A stretch of DNA of 64,000 nucleotides from Planctomycetota bacterium (GTDB taxonomy: Bacteria > Planctomycetota > B15-G4), in contig JBBQUR010000010.1 in the NCBI GenBank assembly GCA_038212275.1, positions 96,001 through 160,000 on the forward strand, written 5' to 3'. Both the position numbers and the translations under genes were made by a program. Under the pieces are notes generated by a model, which had not been told where the DNA came from, made no database searches, and was given only the letters and a program-made list of their open reading frames with translations. Below, piece after piece: positions 713 to 60,220 of this stretch. The first letter of the stretch is position 1. Each line of letters opens with the position of its first letter.

Positions 713-3700
713 ATGACCGACACCATCGCCCCGAGTCCGCCGCGCGTGACGCGCCTCTCCGACTACCGTCCGCCGACGTGGCTCGCGCGCAGCGTGCAGC
801 TCTTCATCGACCTGCACGAGGACCACGCGACGGTGCGCTGCCGCACAAGTTACGAACGCGCCGCGCCGACCAGCGCGACCGGCGCGACCAGCGCGACCAG
901 CGCGACCAGCGCGACAGGTGCGACAGGTGCGACAGGCGCAACAGGCGCGACACGCGATGTACCCGGCAGCGACGAGCTGCGCCTCGACGGCACGGGCGGC
1001 GAGCTGGAGCTGATCTCGCTGCACGTCGACGGCCGCGCGCTGTCCGCCGACGAGTTCTCACGCGACGACGAGAGCCTCGTGCTGTGGCCCGAGCGCGACC
1101 GCTTCGAGCTGCAGGTCGTCACGCGCATCCGCCCGCACCTGAACACCGCGCTGTCCGGCCTGTACCGCTCGGGCAGCATGTTCTGCACGCAGATGGAGGC
1201 GCAGGGCTTCCGCCGCGTGACGTACTTCCAGGACCGCCCCGACGTGCTCGCGACGTGGACCGTCACGCTGGAGGCCGAGCGCGCGCGCTACCCGGTGCTG
1301 CTCAGCAACGGCAACGAACTCGGCGGCGCTGCGACCGGCTCCGCGTCGGGCGCCGCTGCGCCCAGCGCTGCGCCCACCGCGGCACCGACCGCGGCACCCA
1401 GCGCCGCGCCAACCGGCTCAGTGACCGGCGCGCTCTCGGGCGCACTCGCGTCCTTCGCGGACCTGCCGCCGCTGGCCGCCGGCCGGCATCGCGCGACGTG
1501 GCACGATCCCTTCCCCAAGCCCAGCTACCTGTTCGCGGTGGTGGCCGGCGATCTCGGCCTCGTGGAGGACAGCTTTACCACCTGCTCGGGCCGCACGATC
1601 CCGCTGCGCATCTGGTGCGACAAGGGCAACGAGAGCCGCGTCCTCTGGGCCATGGCCTCGCTGCAGCGCGCGATGGCGTGGGACGAGCGCGCGTTCGGCC
1701 GCGAGTATGACCTCGACCTCTTCATGATCGTCGCCGTGAACGACTTCAACATGGGCGCGATGGAGAACAAGGGCCTCAACATCTTCAACGCGTCGCGCGT
1801 GCTGGCCGACGCGGCCACCGCGACCGACGAGGACTTCCAGCGCGTGGAAGGCGTCGTCGCGCACGAATACTTCCACAACTGGTCGGGCAATCGCGTCACC
1901 TGTCGCGACTGGTTCCAGCTCTCGCTGAAGGAGGGCTTCACGGTCTACCGCGACCAGGAGTTCACGGCGGACCTCAACGCGCGCGCCGTCAAGCGCATCG
2001 AGGACGTGCGCCGCCTGCGCAAGGAGCAGTTCCCCGAGGACGCGGGCCCGATGGCGCACGCCGTGCGGCCGACGAGCTACATCGCGATCGACAACTTCTA
2101 CACGCGCACCGTCTACGAGAAGGGCGCGGAGGTCATCCGCATGCAGGCCGCGCTGCTCGGGCCGGGGCTCTTCCGCAAGGGCTGCGACCTGTACTTCGCG
2201 CGGCACGACGGGCAGGCCGTCACGACGGATGATTTCGTCGCCGCGATGGAGTCGGTGTCGGGTCGCGACCTCGCGCAGTTCAAGCGCTGGTACGAGCAGG
2301 CCGGCACGCCGGTGCTGCGCGCGACGGGCCGCTGGGACGCCGGTGCGCGGCGCTACGAGCTGGAACTGTCGCAGAGTTGCCCGGCGACACCGGGGCAGCC
2401 GCGCAAGCTGCCCTTTCACATGCCGGTGTCCGTCGCGCTCTTCGCGCGCGACGGCGCGCCGATTCCCGGCACGCAGCGCGTGCTCGAACTGAAAGAGGAG
2501 CGCCAGGTCTTCGCCTTCGAGAACCTGCCCGGCTCCGCGGACGGTGCAGACGGTGCAGACGGTGCAGACGGTGCGAACGGCGCGAACGGTGCGAACGGTG
2601 CGCACGGCGCGCACGGCGCGCACGGTGGCGCCGCCGCCGGCACGCCCGCCGCGTCCCGCACCGGCGGCGGCCCGGTGCCATCGGTGCTGCGCGACTTCTC
2701 CGCACCGGTGAAGCTGGAGCTGTCGCTCACGGACGAGGAGCTGTGCATCCTCGTCACGCACGACACGGACCTGTTCAATCGCTGGGAGTCGCTGCAGCGC
2801 CTCGCGACACGCGTGCTGCTGGCCGCGGCGGAGGCGCGTGTTGGCGGCGCGACGCGGGGGGGCGCGCGTGCCGCCTCCGGCGCGTCGGCGCTTCCCGCTT
2901 CGTTCACCTTGCTGCAGCGCGCCTACGAGAGCGTGCTCGACCAGACCGCGCGCTCCGGAACCGCTGCGCTCGATCCGGCCATCGCCGCCGAGCTGCTGCG
3001 CCTGCCCGACGAGTCGGTGCTCTGCGACGAGCAGGCCGTCATCGACATCGACGCGATCCACGCGGCGCGCGGCGCCGTGCGCGACGGCCTGGCGCGTGCG
3101 TGCCGCCAGCGCTGGCTGGACACCTTCCAGCGCCTCGACACGTCCGAGCCCTTCGTGCCGGACGCCGCCGCGATCGGTCGCCGCGCGCTGAAGAACGTCG
3201 CGCTGGCATACCTCTTCCTCGGCGATGCCGCGGGTCATGCGGCGGGTGGCGCAGCGCGTGGTGCCGCTGGTGCCGCTGGTGCTGCTGATGCCGCGGGTGC
3301 CGCGGGTGCCGCGGGTGCTGCGGCGCGCCGTGCGCCGCACGACACGCCGGGCGGCGGGCAGGGCGTCGCGCTCTGCGTGCGGCAGCTGGAGTCCGCCGAC
3401 AATCTGCAGGACCAGCTCTGCGCGCTGGAGCTTCTCGCGGGTCACGACGGCCCGGAGCGCGAACGCGCGCTGGCCGACACGCGCGCGCGCTGGCAGCACG
3501 AGCCGCTGGTGATGAACAAGTGGTTCGCAGCGCAGGCCGGCGCCGATCGTCCGGGCGTGCTGCAGGACATGCGCGCGCTGCAGCGCGATCCGCTCTTCGA
3601 CGCGGGCAATCCCAACAAGCTGCGCGCGCTCTTCCACACCTTCACCGGCAACCTGCCGCACTTCCACGCGCCGGACGGCAGCGGCTACGCGCTCTACGGC

Positions 3701-25182: not shown

Positions 25183-26001
<819 letters not shown>

Positions 26002-26011
26002 GGGCCGCGTT

Positions 26012-26791
26012 CTAGCGCCGGTCCGCGAGTTCGGCACGCAGGCAGAGGAGGGTCGCGCCGACCACCGCGAAGGGCGCCAGGGGCGGCAGCAGGCTGACCG
26101 GTATCCCCAGGCCGAGGAGAAGCCCCGGATGCCGGCGCGCCCAGAGTCGCCGGGCCGGCGCACCCAGCCGCTGCCGGGCCAGCGTGATGTCCGCGAGCCC
26201 GAATCCCGTGAAGAAGAACCCGGCCAGCATGAACAGCGGCGCGCCGATCGCCGTGAAGCTGAGCAGGAACAGCAGCGACAGGATGCAAGCCTGCATGGCG
26301 GCCAGCGACAGCGCCGCACCCAGGGCGGCCCACGCATCGCCGAGCACCGCCGACCACGGCCGCGCCTCCTCCGCGCGGCGCTCCACGAGCCGCTGCACCT
26401 GCTCCGAGAGCAGCTCGTAGAACGGGGCGTTGATGACGCTGGACGCCAGCAGCGTCACGAGCAGCGCCGCGAGGAAGGAGACCACGGTCAGCAGCACGCC
26501 GACCACCGGCGCAAGAAAGGAGCGCATGCCGTCGAACCAGCCCCAGGACGCCTCCGCGAGGTTGGCCTGCATCCCCTGGGCGACATTCCAGCCCAGCAGG
26601 AAGAGCAGGCCGAAGGTCACGGTGTTGATGAGCAGCGGCACGACGATCCAGACCCACAGGCGCGGGTGGTGGCCGACGAGCCGCGCACCGGTCAGGGCGC
26701 CCGCCAGGCCGTCGGCGAATCCGGGCTTGCGTCTGATGGTCGTGCGCGCTGACGCGCGCGTCGGCGCGGGAGTAGGCGTGGGAGCGGACAT
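26012..26791 (-). CDS. EI24/CysZ-like membrane protein
   Basis: LWVWIVVPLLIN, INAPFYELLSEQV, several transmembrane segments. Confidence 0.75.
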   Translation of the reverse strand: MSAPTPTPAPTRASARTTIRRKPGFADGLAGALTGARLVGHHPRLWVWIVVPLLINTVTFGLLFLLGWNVAQGMQANLAEASWGWFDGMRSFLAPVVGVLLTVVSFLAALLVTLLASSVINAPFYELLSEQVQRLVERRAEEARPWSAVLGDAWAALGAALSLAAMQACILSLLFLLSFTAIGAPLFMLAGFFFTGFGLADITLARQRLGAPARRLWARRHPGLLLGLGIPVSLLPPLAPFAVVGATLLCLRAELADRR

Positions 26792-26908: not shown

Positions 26909-27922
26909 ATGACGGCCGCAGCCACGGCGCCGCTGCCGCATGTCGTCATCCTGGCCACCGGCGGCACCATTGCCGGCGTGTCGGCGTCGCCCAGCGACAG
27001 CAGCAGCTACACGTCGGGCGCGCTGCCCGTGGAGTCGCTGCTGCAGGCGGTGCCGCAGCTCCGCGAGCTGGCCCATGTGCGCGCCGAGCAGGTCGCATCC
27101 ATCGGCAGCCAGGACATGGACGACGCGCTCTGGATTGCGCTCGCGCGGCGCATCCGCGCGCTGCTCGCGGAGCCGGAGGTGGACGGCATCGTCGTCACGC
27201 ACGGCACCGACACGCTCGAGGAGACGGCCTACTTCCTCAACCTCGTCCTGCCGACGGACAAGCCGCTGGTGCTCACCGGCGCCATCCGGCCGGCCAACGC
27301 GCTCTCGGCGGACGGGCCGCTCAACCTGTTCAACGCGGTGGCCGTGGCTGCAAATCCCGCGGCCGCCCGGCACGGCGCGCTGGTCGTGGCCAACGACGTG
27401 ATCCACGGCGCGCGCGAGGTCACCAAGACGCAGACGCTCTCGGTGCAGGCCTTCGAGTCCATGCTCGGCGGCCCGATCGGCTCGCTGCATTACGGGAGCA
27501 TGCAGTTCTTCCGCGCGCCGGCGCACCGGCGCCTGCTCGATGACGCGGCGCTCGCCGTGCTGACCACGCCGCTGCCGCGCGTCGAGATCATCTACGCGCA
27601 CGCCAACATGTGCGGCGAACTCATCGACCTCACGGTGCAGGCCGGCGCGCGCGGCCTCGTGCTGGCCGGCGTGGGCGACGGCAACGCGAGCCAGACGGCG
27701 CTCGCGGCCTTGGCCCGCGCGTCGAAGCGCGGCGTGCCGGTGGTCCGCAGCACGCGCGCCGACGGCGGCGCCGTGCTCCGCAACGCCGAGGTGGACGACG
27801 ACGCGCAGGGTTTCGTGGCCGCCGGCGTCCTCAACCCGCAGAAGGCCCGCATCCTGCTGGCCCTCGCGCTGCGCACGACCACGGACCCGCGCGCCATCCA
27901 GGCGCTGTTCGACACGTACTGA
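26909..27922 (+). CDS. L-asparaginase (type II-like, no obvious signal peptide)
   Basis: ATGGTIAG, HGTDTLEETAYF, SADGPLNL, GVGDGN, LNPQKARILL. Confidence 0.92.
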   Translation: MTAAATAPLPHVVILATGGTIAGVSASPSDSSSYTSGALPVESLLQAVPQLRELAHVRAEQVASIGSQDMDDALWIALARRIRALLAEPEVDGIVVTHGTDTLEETAYFLNLVLPTDKPLVLTGAIRPANALSADGPLNLFNAVAVAANPAAARHGALVVANDVIHGAREVTKTQTLSVQAFESMLGGPIGSLHYGSMQFFRAPAHRRLLDDAALAVLTTPLPRVEIIYAHANMCGELIDLTVQAGARGLVLAGVGDGNASQTALAALARASKRGVPVVRSTRADGGAVLRNAEVDDDAQGFVAAGVLNPQKARILLALALRTTTDPRAIQALFDTY

Positions 27923-27943
27923 GGCGGCAGGAATCAGGCCGCG

Positions 27944-28297
27944 TTGCGGGTCAGATTCAGCGCGGGGAAGTCACAGTCCTGCACGTGCCCGATTCGCGAC
28001 GCAGCGCGTCTCGCATCCACCGAGGGGAAACGAGACGCGCTGCGTCTCGAATCGGGCGAGGGCACGATCCGCCACATGGGAGGTGGAGAATTGAGCTGGA
28101 TCCACGACAGGCTGCTGCTGAAGGTCGAGAACCCTGCGGCTCGCAAATGGCACATGATCGAGGCCGCCGGCCAGCATTGGTCAGCCCGCCAGCTCGACCG
28201 GCAGATCGCGGTGCTCCATTGCGAGCGCCTGCTGACGCTGGCGCTGCTGCGCACCCGGGATCCGGTGGCCAACCATGCGCTGTTCGACGCGTGGTGA
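27944..28297 (+). pseudogene. Fragment of a YhcG/DUF1016 N-terminal domain
   Basis: IRDAARL/KRDALRLES repeats followed by LSWIHDRLLLKVENPAARKW...WSARQLDRQI...ERLL; lacks the N-terminus and the PD-(D/E)XK domain. Confidence 0.7.
27987..28057. repeat. 27-bp inverted repeat (1 mismatch) within the YhcG fragment
   Basis: GCCCGATTCGCGACGCAGCGCGTCTCG...CGAGACGCGCTGCGTCTCGAATCGGGC. Confidence 0.8.
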
Positions 28298-28349
28298 GAC
28301 AGAGGGGGGCCGGCGCAGGTTTCAATGGGTCGAGGGTGACTCGGACTCA

Positions 28350-28737
28350 ACACCCATCCAGGCACGAGGTGCACATTCTCGGGGTTGATGGGAGGTAGGG
28401 GAACCGGCGGCTTGAATGGTTCGGCGCGGATCCGGACGACTTCCGTGATGAGTAGGCGTGAGCGCTCGATGGGATCGGCGACCGGGGTGTCGAACACGAT
28501 GCGCAGGAGCCGCTCTTCCCGCCTCGACCACGGGGCATCGATGGCGTTGAGCGCGCGCCATGCGGCCGCTTCGCGGGCCCCTTCAGTCACTGCGCGTGAA
28601 CGAGATCTGGGCAACGCAGGCAACTGGGGCAGAGGTGGTTTCCGCGAGTTCAATCGCTCCGCGATCCGATCCGGCGCCAAGGAGCACAGTCTCGCTTCAG
28701 AATCACGGCTTTCGTGAAAGGTCTCGATGGCGTGAAT
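28350..28737 (-). pseudogene. Chimeric remnant: short copy of an RM-enzyme C-terminus joined to a probable helicase C-terminal fragment
   Basis: IHAIETFHESRDSEARL (resembles 30686-30736), then APWSRREERLLR...EPFKPPVPLPPINPENVHLV, recalled as similar to C-termini of RM-associated SNF2/PLD helicases. Confidence 0.4.
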
Positions 28738-28973
28738 CCTCCGGCTTGCCTGGACGCTGCGAGGCCTCCGGGCGCGGCTCGGCGCCGGGCAGCAGGTGCA
28801 CCCGAAGCAGGCAACTCCGCAGGACTAGCGCGCGGGTTCCCGCCAAGCCGCCGCGCCCGGCGTCGAAGGAATTGCGAATCGGTCAACGCTGCGCCAGTGC
28901 TTGGGCTTCCCGACAGCCTGGCCGCGTCAAGGAAGGTCCATCGTTCGCTCGCAGCCATCGTTATCATCCCCCC

Positions 28974-29708
28974 ATGCCAACGATCCGACACCTTTCACGC
29001 GCACCCGTCGTTGAGGCGCTGATCGACTACCGTGTCAAGGCACGCCCGGATCTGGATGTCGCCGAATTTCTTGCATGCCGCCCTAGCGTCATCTCCCGGT
29101 TTCCGAGGCATCACGAGCAGCGACGGATCGAGGCGCAGATCAACATCTCGGACGCGAAGGCGAAGGCGCCCGTGTTGGAGGATCTGGGCGTCCTCGGTCA
29201 CGTATTCGTCAGCGAGGACGGGAAGACGTTCGCACAGTTTCGCGCCGATGGCTTCACGCTCAACAAGCTCCAGCCCTATTCGAGCTGGGATGAGCTGTTC
29301 CCCTTGGCCACGGAACTATGGAAACTCTATTCGACGGTGGCCCGGCCGGTGAGCGTGACGCGGGTGGCGGTTCGCACGATCAATAGAATCCGCATGCCTG
29401 TTTCAGACGTTCATTTTGAGGACTTTTTCGTTGCATCTCCCAGCATTCCTCCCGAATTGCCGCAGCATGTGAGTGGTTTTTCAAGTCAACTCACGATCCC
29501 TGATCCTGCACGGGGGGTCGCAGCGCACATCGTCCAGGTGTTGGAGCGCGGTGCAGAAGGCATCTCCGTGATTCTCGACGTGGACGCCTTCAAGGACGGT
29601 CCGATTGTCGACGCGCAGCTTCCAACCGCCTTCGCAACGCTTCGTGAATTCAAGAACCTCATCTTCTTCAGCATGGTCACTGACCGATGCCTGCGAGACT
29701 TTGACTGA
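28974..29708 (+). CDS. TIGR04255-family protein
   Basis: HLSRAPVVEALIDYRV, QFRADGFTLNKLQPYSSW, VTRVAVRTINRI, VILDVDAF, LREFKNLIFF. Confidence 0.85.
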   Translation: MPTIRHLSRAPVVEALIDYRVKARPDLDVAEFLACRPSVISRFPRHHEQRRIEAQINISDAKAKAPVLEDLGVLGHVFVSEDGKTFAQFRADGFTLNKLQPYSSWDELFPLATELWKLYSTVARPVSVTRVAVRTINRIRMPVSDVHFEDFFVASPSIPPELPQHVSGFSSQLTIPDPARGVAAHIVQVLERGAEGISVILDVDAFKDGPIVDAQLPTAFATLREFKNLIFFSMVTDRCLRDFD

Positions 29709-30202
29709 TGATGCTCGCTTGCCCAGCCGTCGCTCCCGCCGCACCTGACGGCACAGTCTCCTACGCGATCTACGATGAAGGTGCCGGGGTTTGGGATCCG
29801 ATGGACTCCGCGATCGACCCAGGCAGAAGCGTCTCCGTGGGTGATGTGAATCGCAGAGTAGTATTCACACGGTTCGTGGCGGCGGCTGCGGCGGCTCAGC
29901 ATGACAATTGGGATGCGCTTGGATCCGCCCGAGTGCAGCCAGGCTCCTTCATCTACGCGCGGCGGTTCCTGAATGCGCTTTCAAGTTCGATACCGATGCC
30001 CAGTGTTGCCGTCGAGACCGACGGCGAGATCTGCTTTGATTGGCATCTCGGTCCTCGAAGAACCGTGGCCGTTTCCGTTGGCAGGGATGGCACGCTCGGT
30101 TTTGCAAGCCTGATCGGCGACGAGAGTCTGCACGGCATCTCTCAGTATCGGGACGGCGTCCCGACAGCTATTGCCGCACTTTTGGAACGGCTGGATGCCT
30201 GA
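29708..30202 (+). CDS. Hypothetical protein (putative antitoxin-like middle gene)
   Basis: TGATG coupling to the upstream gene; DNWDALGS...FLNAL...PMPSVAVETDGEICFDW. Confidence 0.7.
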   Translation: MMLACPAVAPAAPDGTVSYAIYDEGAGVWDPMDSAIDPGRSVSVGDVNRRVVFTRFVAAAAAAQHDNWDALGSARVQPGSFIYARRFLNALSSSIPMPSVAVETDGEICFDWHLGPRRTVAVSVGRDGTLGFASLIGDESLHGISQYRDGVPTAIAALLERLDA

Positions 30203-30602
30203 TTGTCCTGACATCGCGGGTGACGAGCAGCTCACTCGGTACGTGTTCCAAAGCAATCAGCTGAGCGGGGAACCTGCTCATGCGACCTATCGAGCTTTCA
30301 TGCCGGACGGCAAGGACAACGAGACGTCCGTGTTTCGCACCGAAGAAATGCACATCTTGGAGATCTGGGACCTCGGTGATCGCGAAGTAGCGCCTGTGCG
30401 CGGCTTCCCCATCATCGGTCGCGCAACGACGCGACCATCCAGCATTGCGAGCGTCGCCCTGCGCGTCGAACCGGATGAGCCGCCCACGCGGCATGCGGCC
30501 ATCCGTGGCTGGCCGGTTCATGTTGACCCTACCGCGAAGAAGACCGCAGCCAAGGCGATAGCGATGCGCTTGGCGGCACTCTCTGAGGCTGAAAGGCGCT
30601 AG
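30195..30602 (+). CDS. Hypothetical protein, putative ADP-ribosyltransferase-like toxin
   Basis: Start overlaps the upstream stop (ATGCCTGA); EQLTRY...AFMP...TSVFR...PDEPPTRHAAIRGWP. Confidence 0.6.
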   Translation: MPDCPDIAGDEQLTRYVFQSNQLSGEPAHATYRAFMPDGKDNETSVFRTEEMHILEIWDLGDREVAPVRGFPIIGRATTRPSSIASVALRVEPDEPPTRHAAIRGWPVHVDPTAKKTAAKAIAMRLAALSEAERR

Positions 30603-30637
30603 TTCGTTCGTGGCCTCGCACGCGGTGCGCTTGATGG

Positions 30638-31152
30638 TCAGCCAGTGCGACGCTTCCAGTCGCGGACGTACTTCAGTGTCGCGCGCAGTCGGGCCTAATG
30701 GTCCCAGCCTTCATGGAAGGTCTCGAAGAGGTGGATAAGCTGCGGCTCGCTCAGGCCGTAGAGGTGCGCGACGACGGCGTCGAGTTCATGGATGTGGTCT
30801 GCCTGCGTGTCTGGAGCGAGCGGACCGCAGGCGACGCAGACCTACTCGGCCCACGACGCGAATCGATCGTCGGGGCAGGCCGGCTTGGCGTTGAGGGCCA
30901 CCACGCGCGCGGCATCTGGATCGCGCGGGTCAGGCCGCGGCACGGGCATCGGATTGAAGATGAAGTAGTTGAGCTTGATCTCGACAAAGCGGCGCGAGTC
31001 CCAGTCCAGCGGGAGCGAAGCCTGCACTCCAAGCAGGAAGGCCTGATCCTTGACGGTGCCTCGGGGCCAGGGGAGGAACGGACCCTTGTTCGTGATGAAC
31101 ACGTTTGGCGTCACGAGTGCCGTGATCACCGTGCGCGAGTTTGTTCGATCCG
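30638..31152 (-). pseudogene. C-terminal fragment of an Eco57I-like (type IIG/IIL) restriction-modification enzyme
   Basis: RTNSRTVITAL...FLLGVQASLPLDW...RRFVE...ELDAVVAHLYGLSEPQLIHLFETFHEGWD; in-frame TAG at 30842-30844 and 30695-30697; no methyltransferase core upstream. Confidence 0.7.
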
Positions 31153-57304: not shown

Positions 57305-60220
57305 ATGTGCATCCCCCCGAAGACAATCGCCCCGGCTCCTCGTGCCTTTCGCCGCCGCGCGTCCCTCGCCGTCGCAGCGCTCGCGCTGGCGTGCGTCGCA
57401 GGTGGCGCCAGCGCGAGCGCGTCGGCGCAGGCCGACGGCAATCCGCTGCCGCTGGCCGATCCGCCGACACCGCTGCGCATTCACACCAGCCTTTACCGCA
57501 ACAGCGGCACCAAGTATCTGCCGTTCACGGCGGCCAGCAAGTCATCCTTCCAGGTGCTCGTGCGCCTGTTCGACGGCCCCGCCGGAGAACCGATCTACGA
57601 CGAGTTCGGCGTGCCGTGGGAGGAGCTGATCACCATCGCGTCGTCGTCCTCCGCACCGTCGAGTCCCGACAGCGGGCAGCTCTCGGAGCCCGCGGCAGTG
57701 AAGGGCGAGGTCGACCTGCTCATCGGCGGCAGCAGGCCGCTGCCCTCCAACCTGATGCAGCTCGACGTGTGGTTCAGCACGGAGGTGCACACGCTGAAGA
57801 ACGGCGTCGTCGCCAAGACCTACGCGGCCTCGCCGCGGCAACCCTTCGGCGTGAGCGGCTTCACCTCGGGACAGAGCCTCGCGCCCCGCAACCTCGTCAT
57901 CGGCGGGCAGACGGTCATCGACCAGAGCGGCGCGTGGGTCGGTCCGCCCATCGAGGGCGTCGTCGTCGAAGGCCCGCCCGGTCCCGCCGGCCCCGCGGGC
58001 CCGGTCGGCCCGGTCGGCGCGACCGGCGCTACGGGTCCGCAGGGGGTGGCCGGCATCGATGGCGCGGCTGGTGCCGACGGTGCCCCGGGACCCGCAGGTC
58101 CGCCCGGCGCGACAGGCGCGACAGGCGCGACAGGCATAACGGGGCCGCCCGGTGCGAAAGGCGCGACAGGTGACCTCGGTGCGATGGGCCCGCAGGGATT
58201 GCCCGGCAACGACGGCGCGGACGGCGCACCCGGCCCAGCCGGCCCCGTCGGCCCGCAGGGTGACATCGGGCCGATCGGTGCACCCGGCGGCCCCGGACCG
58301 ACAGGCCCGCAGGGTCTTCCCGGCAGCGACGGTACAAATGGAGCCGACGGCGCGCCTGGCCCAGCAGGCCCGGCAGGTCCAGCCGGCGACGTGGGTCCGA
58401 TCGGTGCCCAAGGTGACCCCGGTTCGATGGGCCCGCAGGGATTTCCCGGCAACGACGGCGCCGCTGGCCCGCCCGGTGTGGACGGTGCGCCCGGTGTGGA
58501 CGGTGCACCTGGGGCCTCTGGCCTGCCCGGCGCGGACGGTGCCCCCGGCATGGACGGCGCACCCGGTCCGACGGGCCCCGCGGGACTGCCTGGCGCCGAT
58601 GGCGCAAATGGAGCCGACGGTGCGCCTGGCCCGGCAGGTCCGGCAGGTCCGGCCGGCGACGTGGGTCCGATCGGTGCCCAAGGTGACGCCGGTCCGATGG
58701 GCCCGCAGGGATTGCCCGGCAACGACGGCGCCACTGGCCCGCCCGGCGCCGACGGCGCACCCGGTATGGACGGTGCGCCCGGCGCCGACGGTGCACCCGG
58801 GGCCGACGGCCTGCCTGGCGCGGACGGTGCCCCCGGCATGGATGGCGCACCCGGTCCGACGGGCCCCGCGGGTCTGCCTGGCGCCGATGGCGCAAATGGA
58901 GCCGACGGTGCACCCGGCCCGGCAGGTCCAGCCGGCGACGTGGGTCCGATCGGCGCCCAAGGTGACGCCGGTCCGATGGGCCCGCAGGGATTGCCCGGCA
59001 GCGACGGTGCACCCGGCCTCGACGGCGCGCCCGGCGCCGACGGAGTGCCCGGGCCGGCCGGCGACGTGGGGCCAGCGGGCGCGGATGGCGTGGACGGCGC
59101 CGACGGCGCGCCCGGCCTCGATGGCGCGTCCGGTCCGCAGGGACCTGCGGGCCCGACGTTCACGGGCGGCACGGTGAGCAGCCTGACGGTCACGTCGGGC
59201 GGCACGAGCATCTCGGCGCAAGGCGACATCGTCGCGGACGGCGCGCTGTCGTCGGGCGTCGGCACGATCAAGACCGGTGGCGGCATCGCCGGCCCGATGC
59301 GCCTCGAGTCCAACTTCGACATCGCGTTCGTGAGCGATGCGGACAACAACAGCCCCGACCCCTGGTTCCAGTGGTACCGCGGCCCCGTGAGCGCCGGCAA
59401 TGTCACGGCGCGACTCACGCAGACCGGCAATCACTTCATCGATGGCGCGTACTTCGGCGGCGGTGCCGACCTGGCGGAGTACTACCCGACCAGCGATGGC
59501 ACGCTTGCCGCGCAGCACGGCGCCCTGGTGGCGATCGACCCGGCACACGCGGCGCACGTGCAGCTTGCGCGTCGCGGCGTCGCGGAGGCGCTGCTCGGCG
59601 TCATCTCCACGCGGCCCGGCATGGTGCTCGGCAACGGCGGCATCGATGGCGATCAGCCCGAGCTGCTGCGCGCGGCGGAGCTGGCGCGCCTTGACGGCAA
59701 TGACGGCCTCGCCGCGGCGTTGCGCAGCGAGTGGGATGCGGCGCAGGAGCGCCGGACTGATCGCGTGCTCATCGCGCTGGCCGGCCGCGTGCCGTTGCGC
59801 GTGGACTCGTCCGGCGGCGTCATCGCGCCGGGAGATCGGCTGGGCCTCGGCACCGAGCCCGGCGCCGCCGCGCGCTGGAACGGTGTGGGTCCGGTGGTGG
59901 CCGTCGCCCTCGACGCGTGGCACGGCGCGTCCGGCGACGGCGACACGGTGCTCGCCTTCGTGTCGCTCGAGCGCGGCGGCCCGGTGTCAGCCGCCGCGAC
60001 ACTCGCTCCGCTTACCGGCAGCGGCACGATTCCACGCGGCGCGACGCAACGCGTCGTGCCGGTCGCGGGCATGACCGCGCAGGGCCAGCCGCTCGTCACG
60101 CTCTACGGCGACCCGGGCGGTCGCTGGTGGATCGGCGCGCGCGAAGCAGGCCGCTTCACGATCGTGCTCGCGCAGCCCGCGCCGGATGATCTCGACTTCG
60201 GATACCTGCTGCAGCGCTGA
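57305..60220 (+). CDS. Secreted collagen-like protein with C-terminal intramolecular chaperone/auto-cleavage-like domain
   Basis: Signal peptide; about 130 uninterrupted Gly-X-Y triplets (57971-59157); GADLAEYY...GVISTRPG...ALAGRVP. Confidence 0.85.

Follow-up and report, generated by a model that had tools for sequence, protein, structure and literature searches.

A three-gene cassette of probable toxin–antitoxin type headed by TIGR04255, with a candidate effector of predicted ADP-ribosyltransferase-type fold, in a planctomycete genome

CmdTAC is described (PMC11618068) as joining an ADP-ribosyltransferase (ART) toxin and its antitoxin to a third component, a sensor of the phage capsid. Panacea (PanA) is presented in a preprint on NetFlax (10.1101/2023.03.22.533649) as one promiscuous module joined to many toxin families; passages on tripartite or three-gene systems, a third gene or ADP-ribosylation were not found in that preprint. 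PDC-M32, a phage-defence candidate in PADLOC, is listed as hypothetical in Sinorhizobium prophages in the one paper found with the term, with no fold, mechanism or third gene given there. We describe here a three-gene cassette (genes 1 to 3) from a Planctomycetota bacterium, lying in a 64,000-nucleotide (nt) stretch of contig JBBQUR010000010.1 (the window). Gene 1 belongs to TIGR04255, a family that NCBI annotates as 'sporadically distributed, function unknown'. On balance we favour the view that the trio is an operon-like, horizontally acquired tripartite cassette of the toxin–antitoxin (TA), abortive-infection type, with an ART-fold effector (gene 3), a neutraliser (gene 2) and a TIGR04255 accessory (gene 1).

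The three genes and their predicted folds

Genes 1, 2 and 3 are co-directional, overlapping and uninterrupted open reading frames (ORFs) that together span 28974-30602 (Table 1). Genes 1 and 2 share 1 nt (TGATG) and genes 2 and 3 share 8 nt (ATGCCTGA), so the three ORF sizes and the tight overlaps reported in the initial annotation were borne out by the coordinates, as was its remark that the cassette is richer in AT than the host genes: the GC fraction is 0.586-0.612 (29000-30499), while two neighbouring host genes, the asparaginase gene and a large gene with a CarboxypepD_reg domain, have about 0.70-0.73. All three genes cover their family profiles from end to end without stops, and the overlapping arrangement is the same in other genomes. 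The layout is that of type II TA loci, with small adjacent co-directional genes, overlaps of 1 and 8 nt, and an acidic partner (gene 2, isoelectric point (pI) 4.73) upstream of the candidate toxin. Antitoxins are usually acidic.

The start codons were checked against relatives. The ATG of gene 1 at 28974 is internal to a longer open frame that begins at 28560; the homologue alignment (A3) begins at the N-terminus, and 28974 is favoured because relatives begin at that ATG. For gene 3 a TTG at 30171 would give 143 amino acids (aa), and since its homologues align from about residue 4-10, the ATG at 30195 is sound as its start. The protein collection holds gene 3 as a call of 100 aa, which is too short. 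Scans of 28400-30900 found 0 promoter-like sites (0.5 expected by chance); near the cassette, terminator-like sites were not above chance, and no Rfam families or tRNAs were found. Three DNA sequencing runs, all of one study, contain this stretch, and no RNA run is listed as containing it.

Gene 3 belongs to a family that carries no name. In a full HMMER search, 1092 cluster representatives reached E ≤ 0.001 and 153 reached E ≤ 1e-10, with lengths that are mostly 120-140 aa; a word-based homologue search recovered only gene 3 itself (as 100 aa). Gene 3 matched nothing in Pfam, NCBIfam, PADLOC or PHROGs, and an Atlas search with genes 2 and 3 gave unnamed clusters only. We aligned 75 sequences (A1), made up of 72 of the 150 listed homologues, the window protein and two loci, of which none (0/75) matched any Pfam model. 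The conserved polar residues in this alignment are E11 (62 of 75), R15 (73), S45 (74), R48 (65), R99 (60), H100 (74) and K116 (56). The three motifs singled out at first sight, EQLTRY, SVFR and HAAI, are all present and contain most of them (R15, S45, R48 and H100).

The AlphaFold2 (AF2) model of gene 3 has a predicted local distance difference test score (pLDDT) of 96.0 and a predicted template modelling score (pTM) of 0.88. It consists of strands 13-17 and 44-48, helix 54-69, strands 75-79, 90-93 and 100-104, helix 112-128 and strand 131-134. In Foldseek, only KptA entries gave a reasonable template modelling (TM) score (0.44-0.45). A VIA search of 48,161 representative chains, independent of Foldseek, placed KptA first (Z 7.3, root mean square deviation (rmsd) 3.3, 93 aligned), followed by AvrPphF ORF2 (6.4), mouse Tpt1 (5.8) and Tne2 (5.0). 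Of the top 20 rows, at least 12 belong to the ART superfamily, namely Tpt1/KptA (four), Scabin, DarT (two), diphtheria toxin, PltA, pertussis toxin, RES and TreX, and five more (AvrPphF ORF2, Tne2, protein 6b, VPA0770 and Tse2) are described as ART-like. In a second comparison, against the 996 chains that Foldseek ranked best, the Z-scores of 12 Tpt1/KptA entries ranged over 5.3-7.7 and those of eleven among them over 6.9-7.7, with an rmsd of 2.6-3.3 Å over 89-95 residues; these alignments cover the whole NAD+ lobe, about residues 84-180 of the chains. Other ART-like toxins followed at 4.3 and below, and the rows taken as non-ART at 3.3 or less. An ART-type fold is therefore likely for the gene 3 model, because the list of structural matches is consistent and the coverage of the domain is near complete. 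The ART-like fold proposed initially is thus supported at the level of models, by the matches to the Tpt1/KptA NAD lobe and by the ART-dominated top rows; the predicted relation of gene 3 to the superfamily is structural alone.

Enzymes of this superfamily carry a catalytic triad on strands 1, 2 and 5, which reads H-Y-E or R-S-E, and H-H-h in Tpt1. R15, S45 and H100 of gene 3 lie on model strands 1, 2 and 5.

Gene 1 is a full-length member of TIGR04255, as had been supposed: it scores 99.7 bits against a cut-off of 30 (E 2.3e-28) over profile positions 2-251 of 252 in NCBIfam. It matched nothing in Pfam, PADLOC or PHROGs. Its AF2 model (pLDDT 94.5) is built from an alpha+beta unit in duplicate, with a large sheet of antiparallel strands. 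Foldseek matched it to TATA-binding proteins (TBP; E about 1e-4, probability 1.00, TM 0.26-0.43) and to S-adenosylmethionine decarboxylase (AdoMetDC), and VIA to McsB (7.8), arginine kinases (7.0-7.3), TBP (6.8-6.9) and RepDE (6.9); in the second comparison, arginine kinases, creatine kinases and McsB reached Z 7.3-8.6 over 170-192 residues. The predicted fold thus resembles a guanidino-kinase/TBP-like sheet. A SecB-like gene 1 had been suggested as well, and here the outcome was different: SecB is absent from the structural matches listed, of which the best are guanidino kinases, McsB, TBP and AdoMetDC, and that list alone does not exclude it. Across 38 diverse members of the family only Y102 and R134 are invariant, a pattern unlike that of a kinase active site. 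Members tend to be mildly acidic, with a median pI of 5.99 and 84% of the 38 below pI 7. Sequence-profile searches of the PDB with A1, A2 and A3 gave nothing convincing.

The N-terminal part of gene 2 is variable, whereas its C-terminal domain is conserved and has invariant W68, G106 and W112. A profile search found 115 homologues, none with a Pfam family and all 'hypothetical' wherever named; gene 2 itself matched nothing in Pfam, NCBIfam, PADLOC or PHROGs. All 79 of 79 relatives are acidic (below pI 7; family median 4.93), and the gene 3 family is near neutral. Genes 2 and 3 of the window are divergent members, at 28-50% identity to their relatives. The N-terminal part of gene 2 follows the presence of gene 1: it was covered by the profile in 54 loci with gene 1 and in 1 without, and not covered in 8 with and 10 without, counts that come from related genomes and are not independent. 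In the loci that lack TIGR04255, mostly from Poribacteria, the gene 2 profile matches from about position 50, and the N-terminal part is replaced by a different helix. Prediction of a complex of genes 1 and 2, run without controls, gave ipSAE values of 0.22 and 0.07 against a mark of 0.32, which speak neither for nor against an interaction. A putative hydrophobic stretch in the N-terminal part of middle proteins was seen by eye and is noted as an idea.

Distribution of the trio and of other TIGR04255 cassettes

To follow the trio beyond the window, 401 genomes of its phylum were searched with the gene 3 profile. Results showed a sporadic distribution, with 16 loci (one frameshifted) in 14 genomes. 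Gene 2 lies directly upstream of gene 3 in 16/16 of these loci, and TIGR04255 upstream of gene 2 in 12/16. A scan across phyla, with one genome per species, used the pattern DEPPxRHAxI, taken from 13 closer sequences (A6), and so sampled a subset of the family. It gave 79 loci from Acidobacteriota, Planctomycetota, Verrucomicrobiota, Nitrospirota, Chloroflexota, Myxococcota, several proteobacterial classes, Binatia, Poribacteria, Spirochaetota, Saccharimonadales and others. Where enough upstream DNA was present, gene 2 precedes gene 3 in 75 of 77 loci and TIGR04255 precedes gene 2 in 62 of 75, with E below 1e-20 in 56 of those. Co-occurrence of the three families elsewhere had been named as a check on the proposed system, and the trio does recur widely in the same order. 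As a separate observation, one phylum locus (L017/L020; G395:C192, ~58453-58810) holds a gene 3 homologue in two frames (profile positions 9-74 and 69-128); this split copy is frameshifted in appearance, adjoins an intact gene 2 homologue and has no TIGR04255.

The neighbours of the trio, taken as the longest ORF to its left and to its right, were surveyed in 64 of the 79 loci (118 of 146 ORFs); 15 loci, mostly near-duplicates from Poribacteria, were left out. The nearest neighbours are of restriction-modification (R-M), abortive infection (Abi), BREX, reverse-transcriptase, helicase or Schlafen type in about 20 of the 64 loci, a hand count that is descriptive; the other neighbours are housekeeping genes or belong to no family. 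Five loci from different phyla (L093, L113, L120, L123 and L127; trio at ~1740-3380 of each locus) have one arrangement in common: upstream is an ORF of about 540-570 aa that includes the terminal part of an N6_N4_Mtase domain, downstream is a UvrD-like helicase (about 700 aa), and all are on one strand. A UvrD-like gene also lies downstream of the trio in L109, L128, L143 and L152, and type I R-M genes flank it in 5 further loci. In the methylase/UvrD loci the trio may form part of a more extensive defence operon.

TIGR04255 is found well beyond the trio. It is present in 71 of the 401 phylum genomes, five times as many as the 14 with gene 3, and only 4 of the 30 best TIGR04255 loci that we fetched are the trio. 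Among the other 26 loci, 25 have a co-directional ORF that starts between -120 and +250 nt from the TIGR04255 stop, and 22 of those 25 have a gap of 5 nt or less, taken with the longest possible start, which may overextend the ORF upstream. Pfam searches on 51 ORFs downstream of TIGR04255 identified third genes with PIN (L038, L048, L050), PemK/MazF (L029), DUF7689 (L022:2670-3128, E 6e-40; L025:2656-3099, E 1e-43) and DUF6361 (L021) domains, and middle genes with HTH_3 or Xre-like domains (L021, L030, L031, L034, L045). The place of DUF7689 in these cassettes suggests a toxin-like role for the domain. The commonest partner of TIGR04255 in the phylum is an Xre-type helix-turn-helix (HTH) middle gene, after which comes a protein of about 260 aa with no Pfam match and a short T-Q-x-C-D motif. 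These third proteins cluster together by BLAST (12 ORFs in 11 loci: L023, L024, L028, L030, L031, L033, L034, L036, L040, L043, L045) and are a candidate uncharacterised toxin family. Annotated TIGR04255 genes also head gene pairs or single genes on three plasmids from outside the phylum (Table 1).

BLAST at E ≤ 1e-3 sorts the middle proteins of the 25 TIGR04255 cassettes into 11 classes; the third proteins, 26 ORFs with gene 3 of the window among them, make up 12. Because both sets are so varied, TIGR04255 acts like a transferable head gene for three-gene cassettes, and the gene at their end is in many cases a classical toxin. The toxin–antitoxin-like logic read into the cassette at the outset is supported by these data: the family also precedes pairs that end in PIN, PemK/MazF or zeta, and gene 2 is uniformly acidic. 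Two of the PIN cassettes (L048:3028-3714 and L050:3-770) are directly followed by DUF1156/methyltransferase and DUF499 genes, domains that occur in a known DNA-modification-type defence system.

Flanks of the cassette in the window

The cassette is intact and sits between gene remnants in an islet of lower GC. On its left is the end of a DUF1016_N domain; on its right is a C-terminal piece of a large protein, 42% identical over 99% of the fragment (tblastn) to a Rhodococcus plasmid coding sequence (CDS) of 4038 nt (~1345 aa), downstream of which lies a helicase-related gene. The remaining flank ORFs had no family match. The initial annotation had every flanking defence gene broken, which agrees with the DUF1016_N end and the 95-aa piece; the word 'every' is not demonstrable, as the other flank ORFs match no family. 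The DUF1016_N fragment closes with a copy of the 3' end of the asparaginase gene; this direct repeat (D1, 73% identical) looks like the scar of an insertion into that 3' end. Just inside the direct repeat lies an inverted repeat. Farther to the left, an ORF on the minus strand ends in a long Gly-Ser dipeptide run derived from a simple repeat; its remainder looks pirin-like.

Table 1. Features of the cassette, its surroundings in the window, and plasmid loci headed by TIGR04255.
Feature	Position	Strand	Length	Remarks
Gene 1, TIGR04255 family protein	28974..29708	+	244 aa	NCBIfam match; model; start backed by alignment A3
Gene 2, acidic protein of unnamed family, candidate antitoxin	29708..30202	+	164 aa	
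Gene 3, unnamed family, candidate toxin/effector	30195..30602	+	135 aa	Predicted fold like the Tpt1/KptA NAD lobe (ART superfamily)
Left-flank remnant, end of DUF1016_N domain	27944..28297	+		Pfam positions 90-132 of 137, E 4.5e-9
Right-flank remnant, C-terminal piece of large protein	30842..31129	-	95 aa	tblastn to Rhodococcus plasmid CDS
Direct repeat D1	27853-27923 and 28228-28298		71 nt	
Inverted repeat	27977-28067		42 nt	83% complementary, 7 nt spacing
ORF with Gly-Ser run	25183-26337	-		
Crinalium (cyanobacterial) plasmid				After TIGR04255: two overlapping hypothetical genes
Vibrio parahaemolyticus plasmid				After TIGR04255: hypothetical gene, then zeta toxin family gene
Thermus plasmid				After TIGR04255: a hypothetical gene

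Proposed mechanism, rival explanations and known systems

In the mechanism that we propose, gene 3 would be the effector, a minimal ART-superfamily domain most like the NAD+-binding lobe of Tpt1/KptA, with a putative active site formed by R15 (strand 1), S45/R48 (strand 2) and R99-H100 (strand 5). It would use NAD+. A phosphate-bearing nucleic acid as substrate, or plain consumption of NAD+, seems more probable than modification of a protein side chain, because gene 3 is nearest to Tpt1 and has no catalytic Glu. The C-terminal domain of gene 2, which travels with gene 3, may neutralise it by direct binding. TIGR04255 would be an exchangeable accessory placed before many unrelated antitoxin–toxin pairs, and a role at the protein level, as a sensor or stabiliser acting via the N-terminal part of the middle protein, is favoured over that of a DNA-binding regulator. 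The comparisons given here show the gene structure, the TIGR04255 membership of gene 1, the predicted folds, the recurrence of the trio and the promiscuity of TIGR04255; from them we infer that gene 3 is toxic and uses NAD+, what it acts on, that gene 2 neutralises it, what gene 1 does, and any anti-phage function.

Several results weigh against this proposal. The gene 3 model had no PDB match at E ≤ 0.001 in Foldseek, none of its Z-scores reaches 8, and best Z values of 7-8 are common for models that have no true relatives. Pfam searches on the 75 members, the PDB profile search and hhalign of A1 against a 19-sequence KptA alignment (probability 0.3%) gave no sequence or profile link of gene 3 to a described ART family. 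The third triad position is His in place of the canonical Glu, and R15, S45 and H100, which would line an NAD+-type pocket, are placed there by strand order alone. Pairs of genes 2 and 3 exist without gene 1 (4/16 and 13/75 loci), so TIGR04255 is not essential to the pair. A hidden Markov model (HMM) of the N-terminal part of gene 2, run against the middle proteins of other TIGR04255 cassettes, gave one match of 10.6 bits among 25, and a shared docking element in that part is unsupported. The count of defence-type neighbours lacks a background comparison. Finally, tblastn with gene 3 against plasmids and phages gave no match, a scan of viral contigs found no relative of gene 3 with the queries used, and the window's own genes 2 and 3 reach no PADLOC model with the limit set as high as E ≤ 1.

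The role of gene 1 divides the proposal from a first rival, which keeps the same TA pair and makes TIGR04255 a DNA-binding regulator of the operon, like omega in omega-epsilon-zeta or PaaR in paaR-paaA-parE. TIGR04255 is always first in the cassette, its model finds TBP in Foldseek with high probability, and on the Vibrio plasmid it stands in omega's place before a hypothetical gene and a zeta toxin family gene; we nevertheless consider such a regulator unlikely. A DNA saddle is basic and this family mildly acidic; TBP is matched with TM-scores of just 0.26-0.43, and the alignments to guanidino kinases are longer (170-192 residues, with Z up to 8.6); and an Xre or HTH_3 domain is already present in many middle genes (five loci with Pfam matches), which would make a second regulator redundant. 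Doubt may also be directed at the chemistry of gene 3. Every Z is below 8, no profile similarity joins gene 3 to ART families, the triad has no Glu, and the matches include Tse2 (Z 4.3-4.4), a toxin of unknown activity; all this would suit a toxin or binding protein of other chemistry, for example a nuclease or a His/Arg-using inhibitor, that makes no use of NAD+ and has the ART-like fold as mere shared topology. We rate that explanation as distinctly unlikely, given that ART-superfamily chains dominate the top of the 48,161-chain search with nearly the whole domain covered, and that the conserved residues lie on the strands of the ART triad.

We give rather little credence to an account without any TA module, in which the trio is an accessory unit for nucleic-acid modification or repair, a Tpt1-like NAD+-dependent transferase with two adaptors that works with neighbouring methyltransferase, helicase or restriction genes. 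The nearest structural neighbours of gene 3, Tpt1 and KptA, do act on RNA or DNA phosphates, and the trio does lie between a DNA-methylase-domain ORF and a UvrD-like helicase in 5 loci and beside type I R-M genes in 5 more. Its neighbours vary in most loci, however, and are housekeeping genes in many; other TIGR04255 cassettes end in the classical toxins PIN, PemK and zeta, gene 3 is the NAD lobe only and lacks a PF01885 profile match, and the distribution is sporadic (14/401 genomes). It is very improbable that the cassette is, in the window's genome, an inert passenger of a decaying island, with intact frames and silent or inactive genes. Gene remnants on both sides, the lack of promoter-like sites and the divergence of genes 2 and 3 would fit such decay, but the three genes fill their family profiles without stops, retain the conserved residues and overlap as they do in other genomes.

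The preferred tripartite TA-type cassette can be extended into a wider proposal, which we offer tentatively and hold to be doubtful as a whole. TIGR04255 would be a hyperpromiscuous third component that had gone unrecognised, a protein-level sensor or stabiliser built on a guanidino-kinase/TBP-like sheet, heading a combinatorial network of three-gene TA/anti-phage modules (PIN, MazF, zeta, DUF7689, the T-Q-x-C-D family and others), and gene 3 would found a new minimal Tpt1-like clade of ARTs whose triad is R-S-H and whose targets, once phages infect, are nucleic-acid phosphates or NAD+. If this is true, TIGR04255 offers a common handle on a class of three-gene TA/abortive-infection modules and would be a third promiscuous accessory module beside the SecB-like chaperones and Panacea. 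It would also open a guilt-by-association route to new toxin families, with the T-Q-x-C-D family, DUF7689 and the gene 3 family as the first candidates. The NAD+-dependent defence effectors would gain in gene 3 a further enzyme, very small, of ART fold and with an unusual triad, and the uncharacterised PADLOC candidate PDC-M32 would gain a testable mechanism. In the searchable literature, with subscription journals and bioRxiv supplements outside its scope, we found no mention of 'TIGR04255', 'IPR026349' or 'DUF7689', and neither the ART-type fold of gene 3 nor the role of TIGR04255 as a promiscuous head gene.

Among described or listed systems, PDC-M32 is the one with which relatives of the cassette share sequence. 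Two PDC-M32A models pick up gene 2 relatives (38 and 16 of 79), and PDC-M32B picks up 12/75 gene 3 relatives (best E 5.3e-9). Because the relatives match these models, the gene 2-gene 3 pair would, judged by sequence, belong to the two-gene candidate PDC-M32 or be its sister. The two differ in that PADLOC holds A and B models only, and 0/38 TIGR04255 proteins match PADLOC. The 'candidate new system' of the initial annotation, for which PADLOC was the suggested check, therefore stands in part: the window proteins match no model there, and their relatives match the uncharacterised PDC-M32A/B.

The best structural match of gene 3 is the NAD+-binding C-terminal lobe of Tpt1/KptA. Tpt1 does not have the catalytic Glu of protein ARTs, and gene 3 also lacks it. 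Gene 3 differs in being a single 135-aa domain without the N-terminal RNA lobe and without a PF01885 match, and in lying in a mobile three-gene cassette in place of a lone housekeeping gene; genome G000 has no PF01885 match at all. The ART-fold TA toxins also appear among its structural matches (DarT, Z 3.5-4.2; RES, 3.9-4.0; MbcT, 3.6; ParT, 3.4) and would resemble it as small NAD+-using toxins, here of two-gene modules, but their Z values are low and none matches gene 3 in sequence. Their partners are the macrodomain protein DarG and Xre-type antitoxins, to which gene 2, itself without a Pfam family, is unrelated.

In its choice of partners, TIGR04255 is comparable to Panacea and the SecB-like chaperones of toxin–antitoxin–chaperone (TAC) systems, with 12 classes of third gene and 11 further classes of middle gene in the loci examined. 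It differs from Panacea in being a separate gene upstream of the pair, not an antitoxin domain, and in its predicted fold. With CmdTAC no similarity of the window proteins was found in sequence (PADLOC models) or fold. The likeness is one of three small genes, with an ART-fold effector and an antitoxin as the roles predicted here. The differences are a gene 1 model that is guanidino-kinase/TBP-like, with SecB not among the matches listed, a gene 3 triad that reads R-S-H, and a reversed gene order of accessory, antitoxin and toxin; this reversal, recognised from the start, is seen as TIGR04255, gene 2 and gene 3 in the window and in 62/75 loci. By analogy, CmdTAC is the nearest characterised counterpart of the cassette in its logic.

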